In this document: piece by piece, positions 8,573 to 24,284 of the stretch
Layout of the letters: the number at the start of each line of letters is the position of its first letter
How positions within the stretch are numbered: position 1 is the stretch's first letter
Source: Armatimonadota bacterium
GTDB lineage: Bacteria; Sysuimicrobiota; Sysuimicrobiia; Sysuimicrobiales; Humicultoraceae
Direction: 5' to 3'
Length of the DNA stretch: 29,803 nt
Assembly (NCBI GenBank): GCA_037446405.1
Contig: JBBIIQ010000002.1
Span: forward strand, 1-29,803
Notes under the pieces: model-generated
Databases searched by the model: none
The model's input: only the letters and a program-made list of their open reading frames with translations
Told to the model about the DNA's origin: nothing
Position numbers and translations under genes: made by a program

Positions 8573-9034
8573 CTACTCTCCGCTGGGGGCGTGCCCGTAG
8601 ATCATGTCGTGCAGGGTGAGGCGCTCCAGCACCCCTTCCGCCGCGGCTTTCATGGCCATCCAGATAGGGCGGATGCCGCATCCCGGGAGGTAGGCGCAGT
8701 TGGGATCCTCCACCCCCACGCACCACCACGGCGCCGCCCCTTCCTCCAGGACCTCGAAGGCTTCCCGCAGGGTGATCTCGGCGGGAGGGCGGGAGAGGGT
8801 GTGCCCCCCGGCGGGCCCGCGCTTGCTGGCCACCAGCCCGGCCCGGCGCAGCGAGGCCATGATCTGGTTGAGGTACGACTCGGGCAGTCCCTGGCGGGCG
8901 GCGATCTCGTGGCTCTGCACGTAGCCCTCGCCGTAGTGGCGGGCCAGATCCACCAGCGCGCGCAGGCCGTACTCCGCGCGGCTGCTCACCTTCACCGCGC
9001 GCGCGCCGTGGTCGACCCGGGTACGCACCCTCAC
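8573..9034 (-). CDS. Rrf2 family transcriptional regulator with three C-terminal Cys (possible Fe-S)
   Basis: VSSRAEYGLRALVDLA, YLNQIMASLRRAGLVASKRGPAGGHTLSRPPAEITL; C-x7-C-x5-C. GTG 9034 overlaps the mec stop (GTGA); alternative start GTG 8995. Confidence 0.92.
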   Translation of the reverse strand: MRVRTRVDHGARAVKVSSRAEYGLRALVDLARHYGEGYVQSHEIAARQGLPESYLNQIMASLRRAGLVASKRGPAGGHTLSRPPAEITLREAFEVLEEGAAPWWCVGVEDPNCAYLPGCGIRPIWMAMKAAAEGVLERLTLHDMIYGHAPSGE

Positions 9035-9432
9035 TGCACGATCACGTCCTCTTCGCTCACACGGCCATCGACAATGCGAAAGCCCCGCACCTGTGGCCGC
9101 TCAGCCCGTTGCAGCGATATTATCACATAGACCGCCTCCGGGTAGAATGCCCTGGCCACGTCCGTGCGCGAGGGCGTGGCCTCGGAGGCGGTGTGTGAGT
9201 GGTAGATGCCCACGACCTCCAGCCCCTCCCGGTCCATCTCCCGCAGGAACTGCAACAGCTGCCGGTCGTCCAGCCGGTAGGTGTAGGGGCTCTGATCCAC
9301 GTTGTCCCCGCGGTACACGCGGAGGACCTGCCCATCCCGCCCGGCCAGCAGCCCGCAGCACTCCAGGGGAAAGGTCTCCCGGGCGTGGGCGATCATCTCC
9401 TCCAGGTGCTCCCGCGTCAGACGCAGCGCCAT
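9031..9432 (-). CDS. mec: Mec/Mov34 JAMM (M67) metalloprotease, CysO-cysteine peptidase-like
   Basis: PLECCGLLAG and YHSHTASEATPSRTD (E...HxH-x7-S-x2-D JAMM motif); next to cysM. Confidence 0.88.
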   Translation of the reverse strand: MALRLTREHLEEMIAHARETFPLECCGLLAGRDGQVLRVYRGDNVDQSPYTYRLDDRQLLQFLREMDREGLEVVGIYHSHTASEATPSRTDVARAFYPEAVYVIISLQRAERPQVRGFRIVDGRVSEEDVIVQ

Positions 9433-10362
9433 CTACCCGAACACCCTGGTGGAGAGGTAGCGGCCGCCGCCGTCGGGGAGGACGACCACGATCACGCCCT
9501 CGCCGACCTCGCGGGCCACCTGCAGCGCCGCCAGCATCGCCGCGCCGGCCGAGGGGCCGACCAGCCAGCCCTCCTCCCGGGCCAGACGGCGGGTCATGGC
9601 GTAGGCCGCCTCGGTGCCCACGGCGATCACCCGGTGGTGCACGCTGGGGTCGTAGATGCCCGGGACGATGGAGGTGGCCATGTGCTTCAACCCCTCCAGC
9701 CCGTGCAGCGGGCCGTCGGGCTCCACGGCGATGATCTGCACCTGCGGCCGCTGCTCGCGCAGCCGCCGCCCCACCCCCACCAGCGTGCCGGAGGTGCCCA
9801 GGCCGGCGACGAAGTGGGTGAGGCGGCCGTCGCTCTGGGCGATGATCTCCGCCCCCGTGGTGTCGTAGTGGGCGCGCCAGTTGGCCGGGTTGTTGTACTG
9901 GTCCAGCAGGACGTAGCGCTGCGGTGCCGCGGCAAACACCTGCCGCGCCAGACGGATGGCCCCGTCGGACCCCTCCAGCGGGTCGGAGGGGATGACGGTG
10001 GCGCCGAAGGCCTGGATGATCCGCCGCCGCTCCACGCTCACGTTCTGCGGGACGACCAGCTCCACCTGGTACCCTTTGGCCGCGCCGATCATGGCGTAGG
10101 CGATGCCCGCGTTCCCCGAGGAGGCATCCAGCAGGACCTTCCCCGGGGTGAGCCGGCCCTCGCGTTCCGCCTCCTCGATCATCCGCAGCACGGGGCGGTC
10201 CTTCACCGACCCTCCCGGGTTGAACCACTCGGCCTTGGCCAGGATCTCCACCCCGGGGGGAACGCCGGCCAGGCGCGTCACCCGCAGCAGCGGCGTGCGG
10301 CCGATGCACCCCAGGAGGTGGCTGCCGAGGCGGTGGGCGGGTGAGGCCGGGCGGGAGGACAC
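9433..10362 (-). CDS. cysM: PLP-dependent cysteine synthase, CysM-type (candidate O-phosphoserine sulfhydrylase)
   Basis: IGRTPLL, NPGGSVKDR (PLP Lys), SSGNAG, QYNNPAN, GLGTSGT, GPSAGA, PDGGGRYLS. Its stop abuts the mec ATG. Confidence 0.85.
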   Translation of the reverse strand: MSSRPASPAHRLGSHLLGCIGRTPLLRVTRLAGVPPGVEILAKAEWFNPGGSVKDRPVLRMIEEAEREGRLTPGKVLLDASSGNAGIAYAMIGAAKGYQVELVVPQNVSVERRRIIQAFGATVIPSDPLEGSDGAIRLARQVFAAAPQRYVLLDQYNNPANWRAHYDTTGAEIIAQSDGRLTHFVAGLGTSGTLVGVGRRLREQRPQVQIIAVEPDGPLHGLEGLKHMATSIVPGIYDPSVHHRVIAVGTEAAYAMTRRLAREEGWLVGPSAGAAMLAALQVAREVGEGVIVVVLPDGGGRYLSTRVFG

Positions 10363-10375
10363 GGCCGCGCGTGCC

Positions 10376-11215
10376 TCAGTCGTCGAAGAGGACGGTGGGC
10401 TCCGGGTAGAGACGTACCCGGTGGGCCAGCAGGCGCGCGTGGACCAGGTCGTGCAGGGCGGCGTTCTTCTCCTCCACCGTGCCGGGGGCGCGCAGCAGCT
10501 CCAGCGGCAGGTTCACCCGCAGCGCCCGGTTGGGGATGACGTGGCGCGTGATGCCGGTGGGCAGCTTCTGCGGGAGGACGGCCAGGCGCAGGATCTGCGC
10601 CTTGGTGAACCGGGGGAAGACCACCAGCACGCCAATCCGGTCGTACTCGGCGCGCAGGAGGCGGCGGTCCGTGGTGAGGACGCGATAGATGGGGACCCGC
10701 CCGTTGTAGGCGTCCACCACGGCGCGCATGGCGCCCACGCGCGCGGAGAAAGACCGCCCCGCCCGCACGCCCAGCACGCCCTGCTCCCAGACCAGGCCGC
10801 AGGCCAGACGGCCGTCGCGCAGCGCGCCGGCCAGCCGGGCGGCGCTGTCCAGAGGGACCAGCGGCAGCCGCGGCAGCAGGCGGGCCAGCGCGGGGCCGTC
10901 CTCCCGCAGCAGGTGGTGCCACACCTCCAGGCGGACCCCCGCCGCGGCGTAGTCCACGACCTGGAGGAGGTGGTGCGGCACGCCCAGGCGCTGCAGGGCG
11001 CTGGTGCGGTTCGCCCCGTCCAGGACCACGTAGCCGCCGCCGGGCAACTCCGCCGCCACCGGCGGGTTGCGCAGCACCTCCTCGCTCTGCAGCTGCTCCA
11101 CCAGGGCGGCGACGCGCCGCGGGTCGGCGTCCTCATGCAGGTGGACCTGCGCCGCCGGGACGATGCGCAGGGTGGGGAGGGGCTGAGCGGAGGGGAGGCG
11201 GGCGGGAGGCGTCAC
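10376..11215 (-). CDS. ParB-fold protein, SbnI/SerK-like free L-serine kinase (candidate)
   Basis: C-terminal part of the track's 10376-12619 ORF; true start GTG 11215 overlaps the CBS stop (GTGA), 279 aa. LHEDADPRR, LRNPP, YVVLDGANR, VWHH, VVDAYNG, LPTGITRHVIPNRALRVNLPLELL, RLYPEPTVLF parallel the SbnI segments as I recall them. Confidence 0.8.
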   Translation of the reverse strand: MTPPARLPSAQPLPTLRIVPAAQVHLHEDADPRRVAALVEQLQSEEVLRNPPVAAELPGGGYVVLDGANRTSALQRLGVPHHLLQVVDYAAAGVRLEVWHHLLREDGPALARLLPRLPLVPLDSAARLAGALRDGRLACGLVWEQGVLGVRAGRSFSARVGAMRAVVDAYNGRVPIYRVLTTDRRLLRAEYDRIGVLVVFPRFTKAQILRLAVLPQKLPTGITRHVIPNRALRVNLPLELLRAPGTVEEKNAALHDLVHARLLAHRVRLYPEPTVLFDD

Positions 11216-15063: not shown

Positions 15064-16130
<1,067 letters not shown>

Positions 16131-16134
<4 letters not shown>

Positions 16135-17753
16135 CCCTCTCCCCTCCACCGTTCCTGCGCCAGCAGCAGCCACAGGGAGAGGGAGGAGAACGCCAGCAGC
16201 AGCAGCGCCGGGGCGGCGGCCCGGGCGAAGAACCCTTCGGTGGCGGTGGACCAGATGCGCGTGGCCAGCGTCTCAAAGCCCGTGGGGCCAAGCAGCAGCG
16301 TCGCCGGCAGCTCCTTCATCGTGGTGAGGAAGACCAGCGCCGTCGCCGCCACCACGCCCGGGCGGACCAGCGGTACGGTGACGGTGCGCAGGACCTGGAA
16401 GGGGCTGCGCCCCAGGGTCTGCGCCGCCTCCTCCTGTGAGGGGCTCACCTGCGCCAAGCCCGCGCGCAGCGGGCCCAGCGCCTGCGGCAGGAAGTGGACG
16501 GCGTAGGCGAAGACCAGCAGCCCCAGCGTCTGGTAGACGAACGGCAGGTAGCGTGCGGCGAAGAAGACGAGGGAGAGCGCCAGGACGATGCCGGGAAGGG
16601 CGAACCCGGCGTAGGTCAGGCGCGAGATCAGGGCGGCCAGCCGCCCCCCGTGGCGCACGGAGAGGATGGCCACGGGCAGCGCCGCCGCCACCGTCGCTCC
16701 CGCCGCCAGGACGGAGGCATACAGGGAGCGGACGGCGGGGCGCAGCGCGAGCGCCAGGGGCTCTCCCTGCCGTATCCCCACCGCCAGCCAGTAGACGATG
16801 ACCCCCAGGGGGACGAGCACGCCCAGCAGGGTCGCCAGCGCACACAGCGCCAGGGCCGGCCACCGCCAGCGGCCCAGCCGCCGCGGGCGGATGGCGCGGG
16901 ACGTCCCCCGCAGACGGTGGAACCGGCCCCGCCCCCGCCGCTCCTCCAGGAGCACGATCAGCGAGGCCAGGGCCACCAGCACCAGGGAGAGGACGGCCGC
17001 GTAGTGCCGGTTGAAGGACGCCTGATACTGCAGGTAGATGGCCGTGGTGAATGACTCGAACTGCATCATGGAGACGGCGCCGAAGTCGCTGAGCACGTAC
17101 AGCGCGACCAGCACGGCTCCCGCGCCCACCCACGGCCTCAGGTGGGGGACGGTGATGCGGCAAAAGGCGCGCCAGCCCCCGTCGCCCAGGGTCCGCGCCG
17201 CCTCCTCAAGGGCCGGGTCCATCCCGCGCAGCCCCGCGCGGGCGCTGAGCAGGACGTAGGGATAGGTCACCAGGGTGAGGGTGATCCAGGCGCCGGGGAA
17301 GCCGTAGAGGCCTCCCGGCCGGAAGGCGATCCCCAGGCGGTCGAGCAGGTAGTGCACCATCCCCGCCGGCCCGAAGACGGTGGCGACGATGATCCCGCTG
17401 ATGAAGGAGGGCACCACCAGCGGCAGGACGGTGAGCGTGCTCCACAGCCGCGCGCCCGGCAGGTCGGTGCGGGTGGTCAGCCAGGCCAGGGGCAGGGCGA
17501 CGGCCACCGCGCTGACGGTGACGGCTGCAGCCAGCAGCACGGTGTGCAGGAGGATGCGGAGCGTACGGGGGTGCACCAGCAGGCGCCAGATCCCCTCGTC
17601 CGCGCCGGCCGCCCGCACTCCCAGGTAGACCACAGGCAGCAGCAGCGCCCCTGCCACCAGCAGCGACGGCAGCAGGACCAGGAGACCGGGAGGCCGGCGG
17701 CGGGCCGGGCCGTCCCTGCGCAGCGCCAGGGTGGACGGCAGGGCCACGGCCAT
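16131..17753 (-). CDS. Fe(III) ABC transporter permease (FbpB-like, duplicated domain)
   Basis: Two permease repeats with EAA loops (LEEAARTLG, QEEAAQTLG), SDFGAV and MKELPATLLL motifs. Confidence 0.9.
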
Positions 17754-17759
17754 GGCCCG

Positions 17760-18782
17760 CTACAGGACGCCTGCCTCCCGCAGCAGGCGGAGGGTCTCCT
17801 CCAGAGCCTGCAGGTGGTTTAGGTCCACGCGCGGGGTGCTGATCTGCGCCAGCGGCCGCAGCAGGGGGTGGGCGGGGACGCCGGCGACCAGCGGGTACTC
17901 GAACGTCTCGGTGGCAAAGTAGCGCTGCGCCTCGGGGGAGAGCAGGTACTCCACCAGGCGCAGCGCCGCGGCACTGCGCGCGGTGTCCACGATCCCCACG
18001 CCGGCCACGTTGATCAGGTTGCCGGCGTCGGGCCCGGGGAAGTAGTAGTTGCGCACCGGGAAGCCCTCCCCCCGCTCCTGCAGGAAGCGGAAGAGGTAGT
18101 AGTGGTTGACAAACCCGACGTCGATCTCCCCTGCCCCCAGGGCGGCGACGATGGCGACGTTGTTGCGGTAGGCCCGCGGGGCGTTCGCCTTCATCCCCAG
18201 GAGCCACTCCCGCGTGCGCTCATTGCCCCAGAGGAGGCGCATGGCCGTGACGTGCGCCTGGAAGGAGCCGTTGGTCGGCGCCCAGCCCATGCGCCCCCGC
18301 CAGCGGGGGTCAGTGAAGTCGCGGATGGAGGCGGGGAGATCGCGGGGGGAGAGGCGGCGTGTGTTGTAGGCCACGACGCGGGCCCGGCCGCTCACCCCCA
18401 CCCACAGCCCCTCGCCGGAGCGAAAGCGGGGCTCCACCTTCTGCAGCAGCGCGGCCGGGAGGCGCTGCAGCCGGCCGGCGTACGCCAGCGCCCCCAGCGC
18501 GCCGGCGTCCTGGGCGAAGTAGACATCCGCCGGGCTGTTCGCCCCTTCTTCCATGATGGTCGCGGCGAGCTCGGCTGTCTCCCCGTAGCGGACACGCAGC
18601 CGGATCCCGCTGGCCTGGGCAAACCGCTCCAGCAGCGGCCCCACCAGCTCCTGGTTGCGTCCCGAATAGACCGTGACCGCAGCCGGCTGCGCGCCCAGGG
18701 GGGCGAAGGCCCCGAGGAACAGGAGGACGGCAATTAGGAGGAACGGGGATATGCGCGCGCACCGCAGGCAGGCACCGGTCAT
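17760..18782 (-). CDS. Fe(III) ABC transporter substrate-binding protein (FutA/FbpA-like)
   Basis: Signal peptide; VYSGR, EGANSPADV, VGVSGRARV, NHYY (tandem Tyr iron ligands), NVAGVGI, EYP. Confidence 0.88.
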   Translation of the reverse strand: MTGACLRCARISPFLLIAVLLFLGAFAPLGAQPAAVTVYSGRNQELVGPLLERFAQASGIRLRVRYGETAELAATIMEEGANSPADVYFAQDAGALGALAYAGRLQRLPAALLQKVEPRFRSGEGLWVGVSGRARVVAYNTRRLSPRDLPASIRDFTDPRWRGRMGWAPTNGSFQAHVTAMRLLWGNERTREWLLGMKANAPRAYRNNVAIVAALGAGEIDVGFVNHYYLFRFLQERGEGFPVRNYYFPGPDAGNLINVAGVGIVDTARSAAALRLVEYLLSPEAQRYFATETFEYPLVAGVPAHPLLRPLAQISTPRVDLNHLQALEETLRLLREAGVL

Positions 18783-18886
18783 GACCTCATCCCCTCCTCC
18801 GCCCTGCCGCCCGGGCGCAGGGCGGGCTTGGATCGCTCCGCGCGTTACGCTATCCTAATTGTTGACTGTGGGACAACAGAATCTGA

Positions 18887-18901
18887 CAACAATCGTTGTT
18901 G
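18887..18901. promoter_or_regulatory. 7-1-7 imperfect palindrome, candidate Fur/PerR-family operator
   Basis: CAACAAT-C-GTTGTTG in an AT-rich patch (18851-18901) between the divergent iron-ABC and fur-family genes. Confidence 0.45.
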
Positions 18902-18916
18902 GCGGCAGGCCGCGGC

Positions 18917-19345
18917 ATGGTCAGCGCCGCTGAGCTGCGCCAGCGCTTCCGGGCGGCGGGCCGGCGTATCACGCCGCAGCGCGACCTGATCTTCCGCCTG
19001 CTGGAGCAGACCCAGGCCGACCACCCGACCGCCGAGGCGCTCTACCTGCGGGCCGCGCGCCAGATGCCCTCCATCTCCCTGCGCACGGTCTACGCAGTGC
19101 TGGCCGAGCTGCAGGAGCTGGCCGCGGTGCGGCCGCTGGACCTGGGGACCGGCAGCACACGCTTCTGCACCAACGTCCGCAACCACCACCACCTGGTCTG
19201 CGAGCGCTGCGGCAGGGTGAAAGACGTCTTCGTGGAGCTGGCCCCGCTGGAGATCCCCGCGGCGCAGCGCGGGGGATTCCTGGTCAGGGAGCAGGCCGTG
19301 GTCTTCCGCGGCCTGTGCGCCGAATGCCGGGGCGGAGGTTCCTGA
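18917..19345 (+). CDS. Fur family transcriptional regulator (PerR/FurA-like)
   Basis: GRRITPQR, HPTAEALY, SISLRTVY, HHHLVCERCGRVKD, GLCAEC (two CxxC Zn motifs). ATG 18917 preferred to TTG 18896. Confidence 0.92.
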   Translation: MVSAAELRQRFRAAGRRITPQRDLIFRLLEQTQADHPTAEALYLRAARQMPSISLRTVYAVLAELQELAAVRPLDLGTGSTRFCTNVRNHHHLVCERCGRVKDVFVELAPLEIPAAQRGGFLVREQAVVFRGLCAECRGGGS

Positions 19346-19372
19346 CCCCCGATCAGGGACATGCAGCCCGCT

Positions 19373-19876
19373 CTATCCGCTCCTCCCTCGCACCGCCGCG
19401 TACCAGCGGCGCAGCAGGAAGATCTGGGCCGCGTGGTAGGAGTCGTGGGTGGCCAGATCGGCGACGACGTCCAGCTTCGTCCAGGGACCTGTCCCCCCGG
19501 GCCGGTAGGGCTCGGCCAGCGCTTCGGCCGGAAGGCGGCGGATTGTGGCGGCACAGGCCTCGTGTGCCCGCCCCAGGTCCTCCTGGACGTCGATCCAGGC
19601 CTCAGTGGTCGGTGCGACGGGGCGCCACTCCTCCTCCCCGGGGTCGACCACGGCTGCCGGATCGAGCCACCGCGCCACCTTCCAACACCAGTAGGCCATA
19701 TGCCAGGCGATCTCGGCGATGGTGTGCTGCGCGGGAACGGGCCGCCAGTGCGCCTCCTCCGGGGTGACGCCTTCCAGGGCCGGGCGGACGCCCTTTCCCG
19801 ACCAGTTCCCTTCCAGGTACGTCCCCTGCAGCCGCTGCGCCAGCCACGCGGGCAGGTCGATCCCGGCGGCGGTCAT
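19373..19876 (-). CDS. DinB family protein
   Basis: [13 protein letters not shown] and [12 protein letters not shown] His triad; ATGA overlap with the trpB2 stop. Confidence 0.8.
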
Positions 19877-21231
19877 GGCTGCAGCGCCGCCAGCTCGCGC
19901 GTCGCCGCGGCCACCGCCTCCGCGGGGTAGGCGTAGTCCTCCAGGCGGCCGCTCAGGTACTCCTCGTAGGCCTGCAGGTCGAAGTGACCATGCCCGCTGA
20001 GGTTGAAGAGGATGACGCGCGGGACCCCCAGCTCCCGCGCCTCCAGGGCCTCGTCGATGACCCGGCGCACGGCGTGCGCCGACTCAGGCGCGGGGACGAT
20101 CCCCTCGCTGCGGGCGAACTGCACCGCCGCCTCGAAGACCGCGCGCTGGCCGTAGGCGGCGGCCTCCACGTAGCCGGCGTCGTAGAGCAGGCACAGCGAT
20201 GGTGCGTCGCCGTGGTAGCGCAGGCCGCCGGCGTGGATCCCCGGTGGGACAAAGGTGTGCCCCAGGGTGTACATCTTGAACAGCGGGGTGGTGGCCGCGG
20301 TGTCGCCGAAGTCGTAGAGGTAGCGGCCGCGGGTGAGCGACGGACACGCCTCCGGCTCCACGGCCACGAAGCGGACGTCCCTGCCCCTGAACCGGTCCGC
20401 CAGGAACGGATAGGCCAGGCCCGCGTAGTTGCTCCCCCCGCCCACGCAGCCGATGACCACGTCGGGGTACTCCCCGGCCAGCTCCATCTGCCGCCTGGCC
20501 TCCAGCCCGATGACGGTCTGGTGCAGGAGGACGTGGTTGGCCACGCTGCCGATGGAGTACTTGGTGTCCTCGTGCGTGGCCGCGTCCTCCACCGCCTCGC
20601 TGATGGCGATCCCCAGGCTCCCCGGTGAGTGCGGGTCCCGCTCGCGGATCGTGCGCCCGGCGCGGGTCTGCTCACTGGGACTGGGCAGGACCTGCGCCCC
20701 CCAGGTCTCCATGATCACGCGGCGGTAGGGCTTCTGCTCGTAGGAGACGCGCACCATGTAGACGGTGCACTCCAGGCCGAAGAGGCGGCAGGCCAGGGCC
20801 AGCGCGCTGCCCCACTGGCCGGCACCGGTCTCCGTGGTCAGGCGACGCACCCCCGCCTCCCTGTTGTAGAAAGCCTGGGCCACCGCGGTGTTGGGCTTGT
20901 GGCTACCCGCGGGGCTCGTCCCCTCGTACTTGTAGTAGATGTGCGCCGGCGTCCCCAGGGCCCGCTCCAGGCGGTGGGCGCGGTAGAGCGGTGTGGGGCG
21001 CCACAGCCGGTAGATCTCGCGCACCGGCTCGGGGATCTCCACCTCCCGCTCGGTGGAGACCTCCTGCTGGATGATCTGCGGCGGGAAGAGCGGGGCCAGG
21101 TCATCCGGGCCGATGGGCTGCTTGGTGGCCGGATGGAGCACCGGGGGGAGCGGCAGCGGCAGGTCCGCCAGGATGTTGTACCAGGCCTGCGGCAGGTCGC
21201 GCTCGTCCAGCACAAACTTGGTCTGCGGCAT
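19873..21231 (-). CDS. trpB2: TrpB2 (TrpB-like PLP enzyme, tryptophan synthase beta type 2)
   Basis: [87 protein letters not shown] 21231 after GGAGG; no trpA in the window. Confidence 0.93.
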
Positions 21232-21334
21232 GTAGCCCTCACCTCCGGGCAGGGAATGCGGTGGATGTGACACCGGAAACGCCGGGTAGCGGTTCGGCTC
21301 CGTCTGGGGAAATCCCTGCGATCGGGTGGCCGGC

Positions 21335-23056
21335 TCAGTCCGCCTGGCGCACAGCCAGGGTGCGCAGGCGGTTGATGGCGGCGGCCAGCTCGTAGCGCCG
21401 CGGCAGGGCGTAGTCGCCGGGGTGCCCCTCGAACCCCGAGAGGACCTCCAGGCCCCGCTGCGCGACGTCCGCCAGCACCGCGTCCAGCACCGCGCTCAGG
21501 GGGTGCTCGCCGTCGAAGTAGCCCTTTTCCAGCGCGTAGAAGATGGCGTCGCCGATGGCGCGGGTCTGGCTGGGGTCCACCACCTGCTCCACCGCAGAGA
21601 GGTCGATGGTCTCGCGGCCGAAGACGATGGTGCGCAGCCCTCTGGCGTCCACGCGGACGCGCCGCTCGCGGTAGGGGTTGAAACCGTGGGGCAGGGGGAT
21701 GCGGGCGCGGACGCGCTCAAAGGGCCGCCCCTCGCTCACCCGCCCGGCTGGCCGCGCGGCGGCGATGCGCCGCGCCTCCTCGGTGACCACGCGCGGGGTG
21801 AAGGTCTCCATGAGGATGACGGTGTCGGCCACGGAGAAGTAGTCGCCTGATCCGCCCATGACCAGCACCGTGGAGACGCCGTGGCCCTGGTAGAGGTGGC
21901 GCACCTGGTCGATGAAGGGGGTGATGGGCTCCAGGGCCTTGGGCACCAGCCGCTGCATGGCCTCGTCACGGATCATGAAGTTGGTGGCGCTGGTGTCCTC
22001 GTCAATGAGCAGGACGCGGGCCCCCACCTCCAGCGCCTCCATGATGTTCGCCGCCTGGGAGGTGCTGCCGCTGGCGTTGTCCGTGGAGAAGGCCTGTGTC
22101 TCCTGGCCGAAGGGCAGGTTGGTGATGAACGGGCTGATGTCCACGCGGGCGACACGGCGGCCGTCCTCGGCGCGGATCTTCACCGTGTCGGGGTGCGTGA
22201 CCACGTACTCCCGCCCGTCGCCGGGGACGTGGGCGTAGACGCCGCGTGCCAGGGCGGCCAGCAGCGTGGACTTGCCGTGGAAGCCCCCGCCGACGATCAG
22301 GGTGATCCCGGCGGGGATGGCCATGCCGCTGACCGCACCGCGGTGCGGCGCCTGAAGCGTCACCGCCAGCTGCGGCGGCGCGCGGAAGGGCACCGCCCGG
22401 TGGGCCGGAAGCGGCAGGTCGGAGGCGCCGCTCTCCCGAGGGAGGATGGCCCCGTCGGCGATGAAGGCGACCAGCCCCTTGGCCCGCAGGGCGTCCTGCA
22501 GGGCGGCGTGGTCCTCCGCGACCTCCACGTGGCGGCGCGCGGCCCGGGCGTCCAGGTTCGCCCACAGCAGCGCGCCCTCCACGGCGGCGGGGAGATCCTC
22601 GAAGAAGATGGCCTGCGCCTGCTTGGCCTGGATCTTCCGCCCCTCCGCGGGCAAACCCAGGGCCAGGCGCAGCTCCACGAAGTCCTCGTGCAGACGGCAG
22701 GCGGTCCGCGGCAGGATCTCCTGCCCGCCGGCGTCCACCAGGAGCATACCGCTGCGGCCCGGCCCCCCGCCGCGCCGTCCCTGGCGGCGGGTCACCTCGC
22801 GGAAGCGGCGGGCGAGGAAGTCCTCCAGGGCGACGCGCCGCGCCGCCCCGTCCCACAGGTCGGCGGGAATCTGTGCCTCCGCCATGTCCACCTGGACGCG
22901 CAGCAGGGAGGGCGGGGCGAAGGGGTCGGGCTGCACGTGGTCGATGAAGAGGACGAAGCGGGGAAAGCGGTAGGCCCCGGCGATGGCCTTGTAGGCGGCG
23001 TAGCCTTTGCCCTCCAGCGTCAGCAGCTTGTCCCGCAGGCGGTCGGCGGGCAGCAT
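21335..23056 (-). CDS. ABC-class ATPase domain protein (COG3044-like), function unknown
   Basis: [31 protein letters not shown] (Walker A), [44 protein letters not shown]. Confidence 0.85.
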
Positions 23057-23078
23057 GGTCAGGAACGACGGCGCGGCC

Positions 23079-24284
23079 TCACCGCTCGGGCCGGAGCAGG
23101 CGCGCCGCCACCTGCGCGTAGAACTTCGCCGCCGTGACCACCTCGTCCAGGTCCACGTACTCGTCGGCGGAATGGGCCAGATCGGGGATGCCCGGCCCGA
23201 AGAGGATGGTGGCGATGCCGCGGGCAGCGAAGAAGCGCCCGTCGCTGGCCTGCTGGTAGCCCACGGGGGCGGAGTCCAGCCCCAGCGCCGCGACCACCTC
23301 TCGGGCGGCGAGCACCAGCGGCGCGTCCGCCGGGGTCTCGATGGGCGGACCCTGCTGCAGCGGCTCCACGGTCACGTCCAGGTCGGGGTCCTCGTCGCGC
23401 AGCCGGGCCACAACCCGGTCGATCTCCGCGAGCGCATCGGCCGGGTGCTCGTGGGGCAGCGTGCGCCGGTCGATGGTCGCCTCGCAGCGGTCGGGGACCA
23501 CGTTGGTGGCGATCCCGCCGCTGATGGTCCCCACGGAGAGCGAGGGTGGCGGGGTAAGGGCGTGCGTCTCCCGGGCCAGCCGCGCGCCGATCTCCTGCTC
23601 CAGGGCGGTGAGCACCCTGACCATGGAGCGGATGGCGTTGACGCCGCGCCATGGGGTAGAGCCGTGGGCCGTGCGGCCGCGGGTGACCAGGCGCACCCAG
23701 AGGAGACCTTTCTCCGCGATGGCGATGCGGTTGTGGGTGACTTCGCCGACGATGACCTGGTCGGGCCGCAGCAGCCCCCGCTGCACCAGCATCTCCGTGC
23801 CCTTGGCCCCGCCCACCTCCTCGTCGCTCACCAGCGAGAGCAGCAGTGATCCCGCCAGCGGGACCTCCCGACGCACCAGCGTCTCCACGGCCGTCACCAT
23901 GGCCGCCACGGACCCCTTGGGGTCGGCTGCGCCGCGGCCGTAGAGGCGGGTGCCCTCGATCTGCGCGCCCAGCGGGTCGTGGCGCCAGGCGCGGCGGTCT
24001 CCCGGGGGCACCGTGTCCAGGTGGCTGTTCAGCAGGAGCTCCGGGCGCCCCGACCCCAGGCGTAGCAGGAGGTTGGGCTTCTTCGGCTCCTCCGCCAGGA
24101 CCTGGAAGTCCACCCCCAGTCTGCGCAGGCGCGCCCCGATCAGGTCCACGGCGCGGCGGGTGTCGCCCGGCGGGTTGGTGGTGTCGGTGCGCACCAGCGA
24201 GGCGAGCAGCCCCACCAGCGAGGGCCGCTGCCGCTCAATCTCCTCGGTCAGCGCCAGGGCGTCGGTGGGCGTCGTCGAGCTCAT
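23079..24284 (-). CDS. M20 (ArgE/DapE-like) metallohydrolase
   Basis: LNSHLDTV, GRGAADPKG, SDEEVGG, GEVT, AHGSTP, AHSADE. Start moved to ATG 24284. Confidence 0.88.
   Translation of the reverse strand: MSSTTPTDALALTEEIERQRPSLVGLLASLVRTDTTNPPGDTRRAVDLIGARLRRLGVDFQVLAEEPKKPNLLLRLGSGRPELLLNSHLDTVPPGDRRAWRHDPLGAQIEGTRLYGRGAADPKGSVAAMVTAVETLVRREVPLAGSLLLSLVSDEEVGGAKGTEMLVQRGLLRPDQVIVGEVTHNRIAIAEKGLLWVRLVTRGRTAHGSTPWRGVNAIRSMVRVLTALEQEIGARLARETHALTPPPSLSVGTISGGIATNVVPDRCEATIDRRTLPHEHPADALAEIDRVVARLRDEDPDLDVTVEPLQQGPPIETPADAPLVLAAREVVAALGLDSAPVGYQQASDGRFFAARGIATILFGPGIPDLAHSADEYVDLDEVVTAAKFYAQVAARLLRPER

Follow-up and report, generated by a model that had tools for sequence, protein, structure and literature searches.

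In Staphylococcus aureus, the ParB-fold serine kinase SbnI and the CysK-type, fold-type II PLP enzyme SbnA are encoded in one operon for siderophore synthesis, and the kinase supplies O-phospho-L-serine (OPS) to its partner for beta-replacement. A comparable division of labor is found in Thermococcus kodakarensis, where the ADP-dependent serine kinase SerK provides OPS for a PLP-dependent cysteine synthase (PMC5120207); the text of that paper mentions neither 'tryptophan' nor 'TrpB'. A different, remote SbnI-like family (DUF1015), encoded beside serA, was proposed by GapMind in 2026. OPS has also been linked to the TrpB-like enzyme TrpB2, for which PMC11917138, citing Busch 2014, gives it as the native substrate; a preference of TrpB2 enzymes for OPS was reported in 2014. 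Our literature searches returned no paper on a pairing of such a kinase with TrpB2 and none containing both 'serine kinase' and 'TrpB2'.

The window analyzed here is a stretch of 29,803 nucleotides (72% G+C) from contig C2 of an assembly that was built from a metagenome, is 77% complete and comprises 273 contigs totalling 1.98 Mb; close copies of its TrpB2 protein are labelled 'Armatimonadota bacterium' by NCBI. An initial annotation had described a stand-alone trpB2 without trpA, about 9 kb from an SbnI-like gene and coupled by ATGA to a DinB-family gene, and had proposed that the kinase may feed both cysteine and tryptophan synthesis. The relevant features of the window are as follows.

9031-9432: Mec-like JAB gene, after cysM
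9433-10362, minus strand: cysM-type cysteine synthase (TIGR01136, 345 bits, at the cut-off; TIGR01138, 363 bits), the probable OPS consumer adjoining the kinase
10376-11215, minus strand: SbnI/SerK-like putative free-serine kinase in the cysteine operon (PDB SbnI 6nr6, SerK 5x0b)
15064-18782, minus strand: Fe3+-type ABC transporter, with binding protein, permease and ATPase (SBP_bac_6, BPD_transp_1, ABC_tran/TOBE_2)
18896-19345, plus strand: Fur-family regulator (PF01475, 84 bits)
19373-19876, minus strand: DinB_2 family gene (PF12867, 63 bits), its start overlapping the trpB2 stop (ATGA)
19873-21231, minus strand: trpB2, stand-alone TrpB-like PLP enzyme of 452 aa (NF009057, TIGR01415, PDB 6hul_B)
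21239-21246, minus strand: Shine-Dalgarno sequence GGAGGTGA, 7 nt ahead of the trpB2 ATG, read from the sequence
21335-23056, minus strand: ABC_ATPase / MRB1590-like P-loop gene upstream of trpB2 (PF09818, 414 bits; PF20446, PF21117)

The window's arrangement shares with SbnI–SbnA the logic of a ParB-fold serine kinase supplying OPS to a beta-replacement PLP enzyme, and the match between the kinase family and SbnI is full-length. It differs in that the kinase adjoins CysM, and the TrpB-type consumer lies 8.7 kb away.

The trpB2 gene and its product

The trpB2 gene begins with an ATG at 21231-21229 on the minus strand. We assigned a protein to TrpB2 when its whole-protein HMM score lay above the curated cut-off for the family and below that for canonical TrpB. 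The window protein scores 744 bits with NF009057 (cut-off 366) and 664 bits with TIGR01415 (cut-off 519), and only 156 bits with the canonical trpB model TIGR00263, under the cut-off of 392. Its top solved relatives are chains of Sulfolobus solfataricus TrpB2: 6hul_B (470 bits), 4qys_B and 6hte_B. An alignment with 6hul_B, 4qys_B and the TrpB1 of its own genome shows that the catalytic lysine of the SHK motif, the GGGSN loop and the glutamate of TETGAGQ are retained. At the position equivalent to Asp305 of TrpB1, the window protein carries an arginine (GGLRYHG, versus AGLDYPA in the TrpB1 of the same genome) that is also present in the three S. solfataricus chains, and we take this residue to bind the phosphate of OPS. 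The window and S. solfataricus enzymes further have in common the N-terminal extension, and both are encoded apart from trpA. They differ in that the window copy comes from an uncultured bacterial phylum and shares a conserved block with genes for iron uptake and with a cysteine operon. Overall, the window encodes a normal and intact TrpB2.

The description of trpB2 as a stand-alone gene is borne out by the rest of the assembly. The window itself contains no trpA, and a search for trpA and trpB1, which the initial annotation had recommended, located the sole copies of both as neighbors on contig C11. TrpB2 is therefore an additional enzyme in this host.

It could be argued that the window TrpB2 uses no OPS or makes no tryptophan, working instead with L-serine or adding some other nucleophile to the aminoacrylate; such an enzyme would be metabolically unconnected to the kinase. 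What TrpB2 does physiologically is indeed unsettled in the literature consulted, and nothing ties the conserved neighbors of the gene, the ABC_ATPase and the iron-uptake genes, to tryptophan. However, all of the catalytic motifs and the arginine at the Asp305 position are kept, and the family is reported to be OPS-dependent (PMC11917138). Together with the identity to TrpB2 proteins from a very different genomic setting (see below), these observations lead us to regard this alternative as quite improbable.

TrpB2 is also encoded by the control organisms B. thetaiotaomicron, T. maritima, S. acidocaldarius and M. acetivorans. The copies from the window's phylum form one clade in a TrpB2 tree, which points to vertical inheritance. 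We also observed that this clade groups more with TrpB2 from kinase-bearing Chloroflexota genomes (7/9) than with TrpB2 from kinase-free ones (1/8), a grouping that may simply follow species relationships.

Gene order around trpB2

The trpB2 stop codon lies 8.7 kb upstream of the kinase gene, in agreement with the roughly 9 kb first estimated, and the Fur gene and iron transporter block stand between them. Of the six genes that separate the two, only Fur lies on the opposite strand, where it breaks any read-through from trpB2 to the cysteine operon; the other five share the strand of trpB2 and the kinase. A promoter and terminator scan of positions 18700-23300 detected none.

The trpB2 TGA overlaps the ATG of DinB_2, just as initially described. 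In G013, a genome of the same genus, the DinB_2 gene is exactly missing: 527 bases of the window (19350-19876) correspond to 26 bases there (L036). In G011 the gene lies about 0.9 kb downstream of TrpB2 and is uncoupled, and all other loci lack it. We therefore rejected the ATGA overlap as a functional clue. On the other side of trpB2, the ABC_ATPase / MRB1590-like gene is a conserved upstream neighbor in most genomes of families f1 and f3, and is found about 4 kb away in family f6.

TrpB2 and the kinase across the phylum

We surveyed 94 genomes of the phylum, all from one order. The kinase is present in 88 of them (53 of the 54 high-quality genomes) and TrpB2 in 62; TrpB2 is missing almost throughout family f4 and in several f1 genera. 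Both genes occur in 58 genomes, TrpB2 alone in four, the kinase alone in 30 and neither in two, giving an odds ratio of 0.97. Removing the two unpublished genomes (G016, among the 30, and G024, among the 58) changes nothing. These counts indicate that the kinase is kept independently of TrpB2; they have no power in the reverse direction. Most of the genomes used in this study are incomplete MAGs.

In 32 genomes the two genes lie on one contig and strand with TrpB2 upstream, at distances of 4.6-28 kb in 31 cases and 98 kb in one, and this linkage spans families f1 and f3 and part of f5. Mapping the window proteins onto 32 fetched loci revealed a shared backbone of S41 peptidase, ABC_ATPase (in most), TrpB2, an iron module, lipB, CGL, cysO, CBS, kinase, cysM, mec, sigma factor, RidA and glmU. 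In two genomes of genus g16 (G042 and G043), TrpB2, FTR1, lipB, CGL, cysO, CBS, kinase, cysM and mec form an unbroken same-strand string in which no gap exceeds about 130 nt. Family f4 keeps the cysteine operon and the flanking backbone without TrpB2, and in genus g29 and family f6 the TrpB2 and kinase loci are separated. Four loci of genus g12 (L026, L027, L028 and L059) show lipB, kinase and mec with no cysM, CBS, CGL or cysO between.

The slot between TrpB2 and lipB is always occupied by genes for iron uptake or regulation, the kind differing by family: Fur with an Fe ABC transporter, FTR1, or DtxR with an ABC transporter. Examples are at 15064-19345 of the window and at L024:3231-4097, L029:3608-4477 and L030:3669-4346. 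The FTR1 permease is sometimes accompanied by a NIF3-like gene, and the DtxR-like repressor is of the DtxR/FeoA type. Since an iron module always intervenes, TrpB2 never directly abuts the cysteine genes. We had considered that TrpB2–DinB might abut the cysteine operon where the Fe/Fur block is missing, and rejected this because FTR1 or another iron module is always found in between.

Two readings of this linkage can be weighed. In the first, trpB2 and the cysteine operon would constitute a selected supra-operon: selection would keep TrpB2 linked to a kinase that feeds two pathways, its OPS serving as the general activated serine for both CysM and TrpB2. The conserved same-strand linkage in the 32 genomes and the unbroken string from TrpB2 to mec in G042 and G043 both argue for it. 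Against it are the 30 genomes that retain the kinase without TrpB2, the lack of association between the two genes in the phylum and in Chloroflexota (see below), and the broken linkage in g29 and f6. Unrelated genes share the same conserved order, and in the window the opposite-strand Fur gene and the 3.7 kb transporter block separate the genes concerned. On balance we hold a selected supra-operon fed by one kinase to be a tentative idea and a somewhat unlikely one. In the second reading, the linkage would be mainly conserved synteny, and the comparison of gene orders appears to fit this better.

Other sources of OPS in the phylum

The search for serC suggested in the initial annotation came back empty: neither the window's genome nor any of four good relatives (five genomes in all) yielded a canonical SerC, which speaks for the kinase as a supplier of both enzymes. 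The four relatives (G013, G001, G047 and G080) do, however, encode a full-length SerA scoring over the cut-off, with a class-V aminotransferase of the serine–glyoxylate/serine–pyruvate type immediately upstream. The 77%-complete assembly that contains the window yielded no SerA. SerA and this aminotransferase would be a plausible second source of OPS; the SerA-adjacent enzyme is not a canonical SerC. At L044:1498-4323 (G013), the class-V aminotransferase and SerA occupy one open frame of 941 codons with no stop between them, which may represent either two same-frame genes or a fusion.

The kinase family

In a PDB search the window kinase matches both SbnI (6nr6, E 6e-12) and SerK (5x0b, E 6e-9) over the full length, with low identity to the T. 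kodakarensis enzyme. Its match to NF033589 is below the cut-off, and a Pfam search with it returned no family. The SbnI model had no match in any of 14 control organisms. The kinase family is large, with 1065 clusters at E<1e-3 in a library of 1.84 billion proteins.

A maximum-likelihood tree (IQ-TREE) places all 20 TrpB2-adjacent kinases in one clade (support 95), characterized by a DRVSYTN motif. The window kinase belongs to a separate CSP1-3 cysteine-operon clade (support 98), across the support-95 split from the TrpB2-linked kinases, and this position weighs against the supra-operon reading given above. An earlier FastTree topology had these two clades as sisters (support 84); it was not upheld by IQ-TREE and was dropped. 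The NCBIfam SerK model NF053625 matches the TrpB2-linked kinases of L065 and L068, and no such match was obtained for the window kinase.

Among family members, we noted fusions of about 565-605 aa in which the kinase forms the C-terminal part and a D-2-hydroxyacid dehydrogenase (SerA/glycerate dehydrogenase-like) the N-terminal part, and a second type of 438 aa that joins a Mec-like JAB domain to the kinase. The fusion proteins are P0047, P0060, P0091, P0109, P0130, P0132 and P0139, and P0036. No fusion of PALP or TrpB2 to the kinase was found among the best 150 representatives.

A kinase–TrpB2 pair outside the phylum

A distant representative of the kinase (P0028) led to six genomic loci. One, in a Chloroflexota MAG, has the kinase with cysO and cysM. 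In four, from Eisenbacteria MAGs, neither partner is close by, and searches of three of these genomes found no TrpB2. In the sixth, from an uncultured bacterium (G094), TrpB2 comes 107 nt after the kinase. We sampled 201 genomes of the phylum of G094, one member of which is named Candidatus Krumholzibacteria. Thirteen carry the kinase and 13 carry TrpB2; six have both, against a chance expectation of 0.84 genomes (Fisher's p 3e-5, which is overstated because the relatives are non-independent). In each of these six genomes TrpB2 comes right after the kinase, and the surrounding genes vary from genome to genome.

Of the genomes with the pair, the five checked have no genes for TrpB1, TrpA and SerC-like and SerA-like proteins, and TrpC was absent from all six, one of which is a single 4.1 Mb contig. 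Among the genomes of this phylum with TrpB2 alone, SerC or a class-V aminotransferase is present in most and TrpA in five of seven; the pair genomes have neither SerC nor such an aminotransferase. This difference suggests that a kinase is required only in genomes without the serine pathway. A further kinase clade is represented by kinase-only loci of the same phylum (L071-L075), which have no TrpB2 or cysM nearby and in which the neighbors of the kinase include a glycosyltransferase–HAD fusion, an amidohydrolase and AsnA.

A metagenome scan seeded by sequence alone yielded 80 kinase relatives with 34-68% identity to the query, on contigs of 36-69% G+C. A same-strand TrpB2 follows the kinase in 67 of these 80 loci, at a median gap of 52 nt. 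In 12 of the remaining 13 the contig continues for 212 nt or less downstream, and L149 alone truly lacks TrpB2; the kinase is thus linked to TrpB2 in 67 of 68 informative loci. These observations come from loci L065:9947-12269, L066-L070 and L102-L181, and one of the kinases (UCF06625.1) is a 'hypothetical protein' at NCBI. A sister clade of the kinase, outside the window's phylum, thus appears clearly dedicated to TrpB2. The comparative support for the view that ParB-fold serine kinases can provide TrpB2 with OPS is strong, and it comes from another kinase clade and another metabolic background than those of the window.

The initial annotation had proposed phylogenetic co-occurrence as a check and named its absence beyond chance as a refutation. 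The expectation holds for the TrpB2-linked kinases (6/6 genomes and 67/68 loci), but for the other clades nothing beyond chance was seen: the odds ratio in the window's phylum is given above, and in 201 Chloroflexota genomes TrpB2 is present in 12 of 25 with the kinase and in 85 of 176 without it, 48% in each case. Adjacency of kinase and TrpB2 never occurs in these Chloroflexota genomes. One of the 13 in which the kinase occurs alone (G443) is unpublished.

The pair bears on both alternatives raised so far. Its TrpB2 proteins are 60-72% identical to that of the window and come from genomes without any other route to OPS or tryptophan, which argues against a window enzyme that uses no OPS or makes no tryptophan. 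For the idea that the cysteine-operon kinase serves CysM and TrpB2 alike, the pair is a proof of principle from elsewhere, involving the same two protein families. The window, however, does not have the features of the pair. In a dedicated kinase–TrpB2 cassette as we define it, TrpB2 follows the kinase directly, on one strand and after a gap of 14-523 nt; in the window the order is reversed, with TrpB2 first and the kinase 8.7 kb downstream. The pair kinases form a clade of their own, and the window kinase lies outside it. The pair genomes that were checked lack SerA, SerC, TrpA, TrpB1 and TrpC, whereas the window's genome has trpB1 and trpA and four of its relatives have SerA.

Discussion

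We lean modestly toward the following explanation of the locus as a whole: the window gene is an intact TrpB2 that would serve indole salvage from a common OPS pool, without a dedicated kinase partner, and its position is inherited. TrpB2 would condense free indole with OPS to give tryptophan, as a salvage side route beside the canonical TrpA–TrpB1 synthase. The OPS would be drawn from a common cellular pool that could be filled by the cysteine-operon kinase and probably also by SerA with the class-V aminotransferase. The placement of TrpB2 8.7 kb upstream of the kinase would then be a gene order inherited phylum-wide. Several observations count against this explanation: the same-strand linkage in 32 genomes, the G042/G043 string, the existence of a sister kinase clade dedicated to TrpB2, the non-canonical type of the SerA-adjacent aminotransferase and the failure to find SerA in the window's own assembly.

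The original proposal that the kinase feeds both cysteine and tryptophan synthesis fares differently at two levels. As a general idea it is supported by the kinase–TrpB2 pairs found elsewhere. As a statement about the window it is opposed by the clade to which the kinase belongs, by the distribution of the two genes and by the putative SerA route, and is favored by the conserved same-strand linkage across the phylum; the evidence specific to the window is weak. The cysteine-operon kinase may well make part of the OPS used by TrpB2.

The window gene alone does not explain why phosphorylated serine would be spent on tryptophan. The kinase–TrpB2 unit offers a testable physiological setting for such an expense, in which ATP, serine and scavenged indole would be converted to tryptophan. 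This unit is widespread, in bacteria without a serine-phosphate or tryptophan pathway, and provides a benchmark for the looser arrangement in the window's phylum. An annotation as probable serine kinase could be given to many proteins now described as 'hypothetical' or as having a 'ParB N-terminal domain'.
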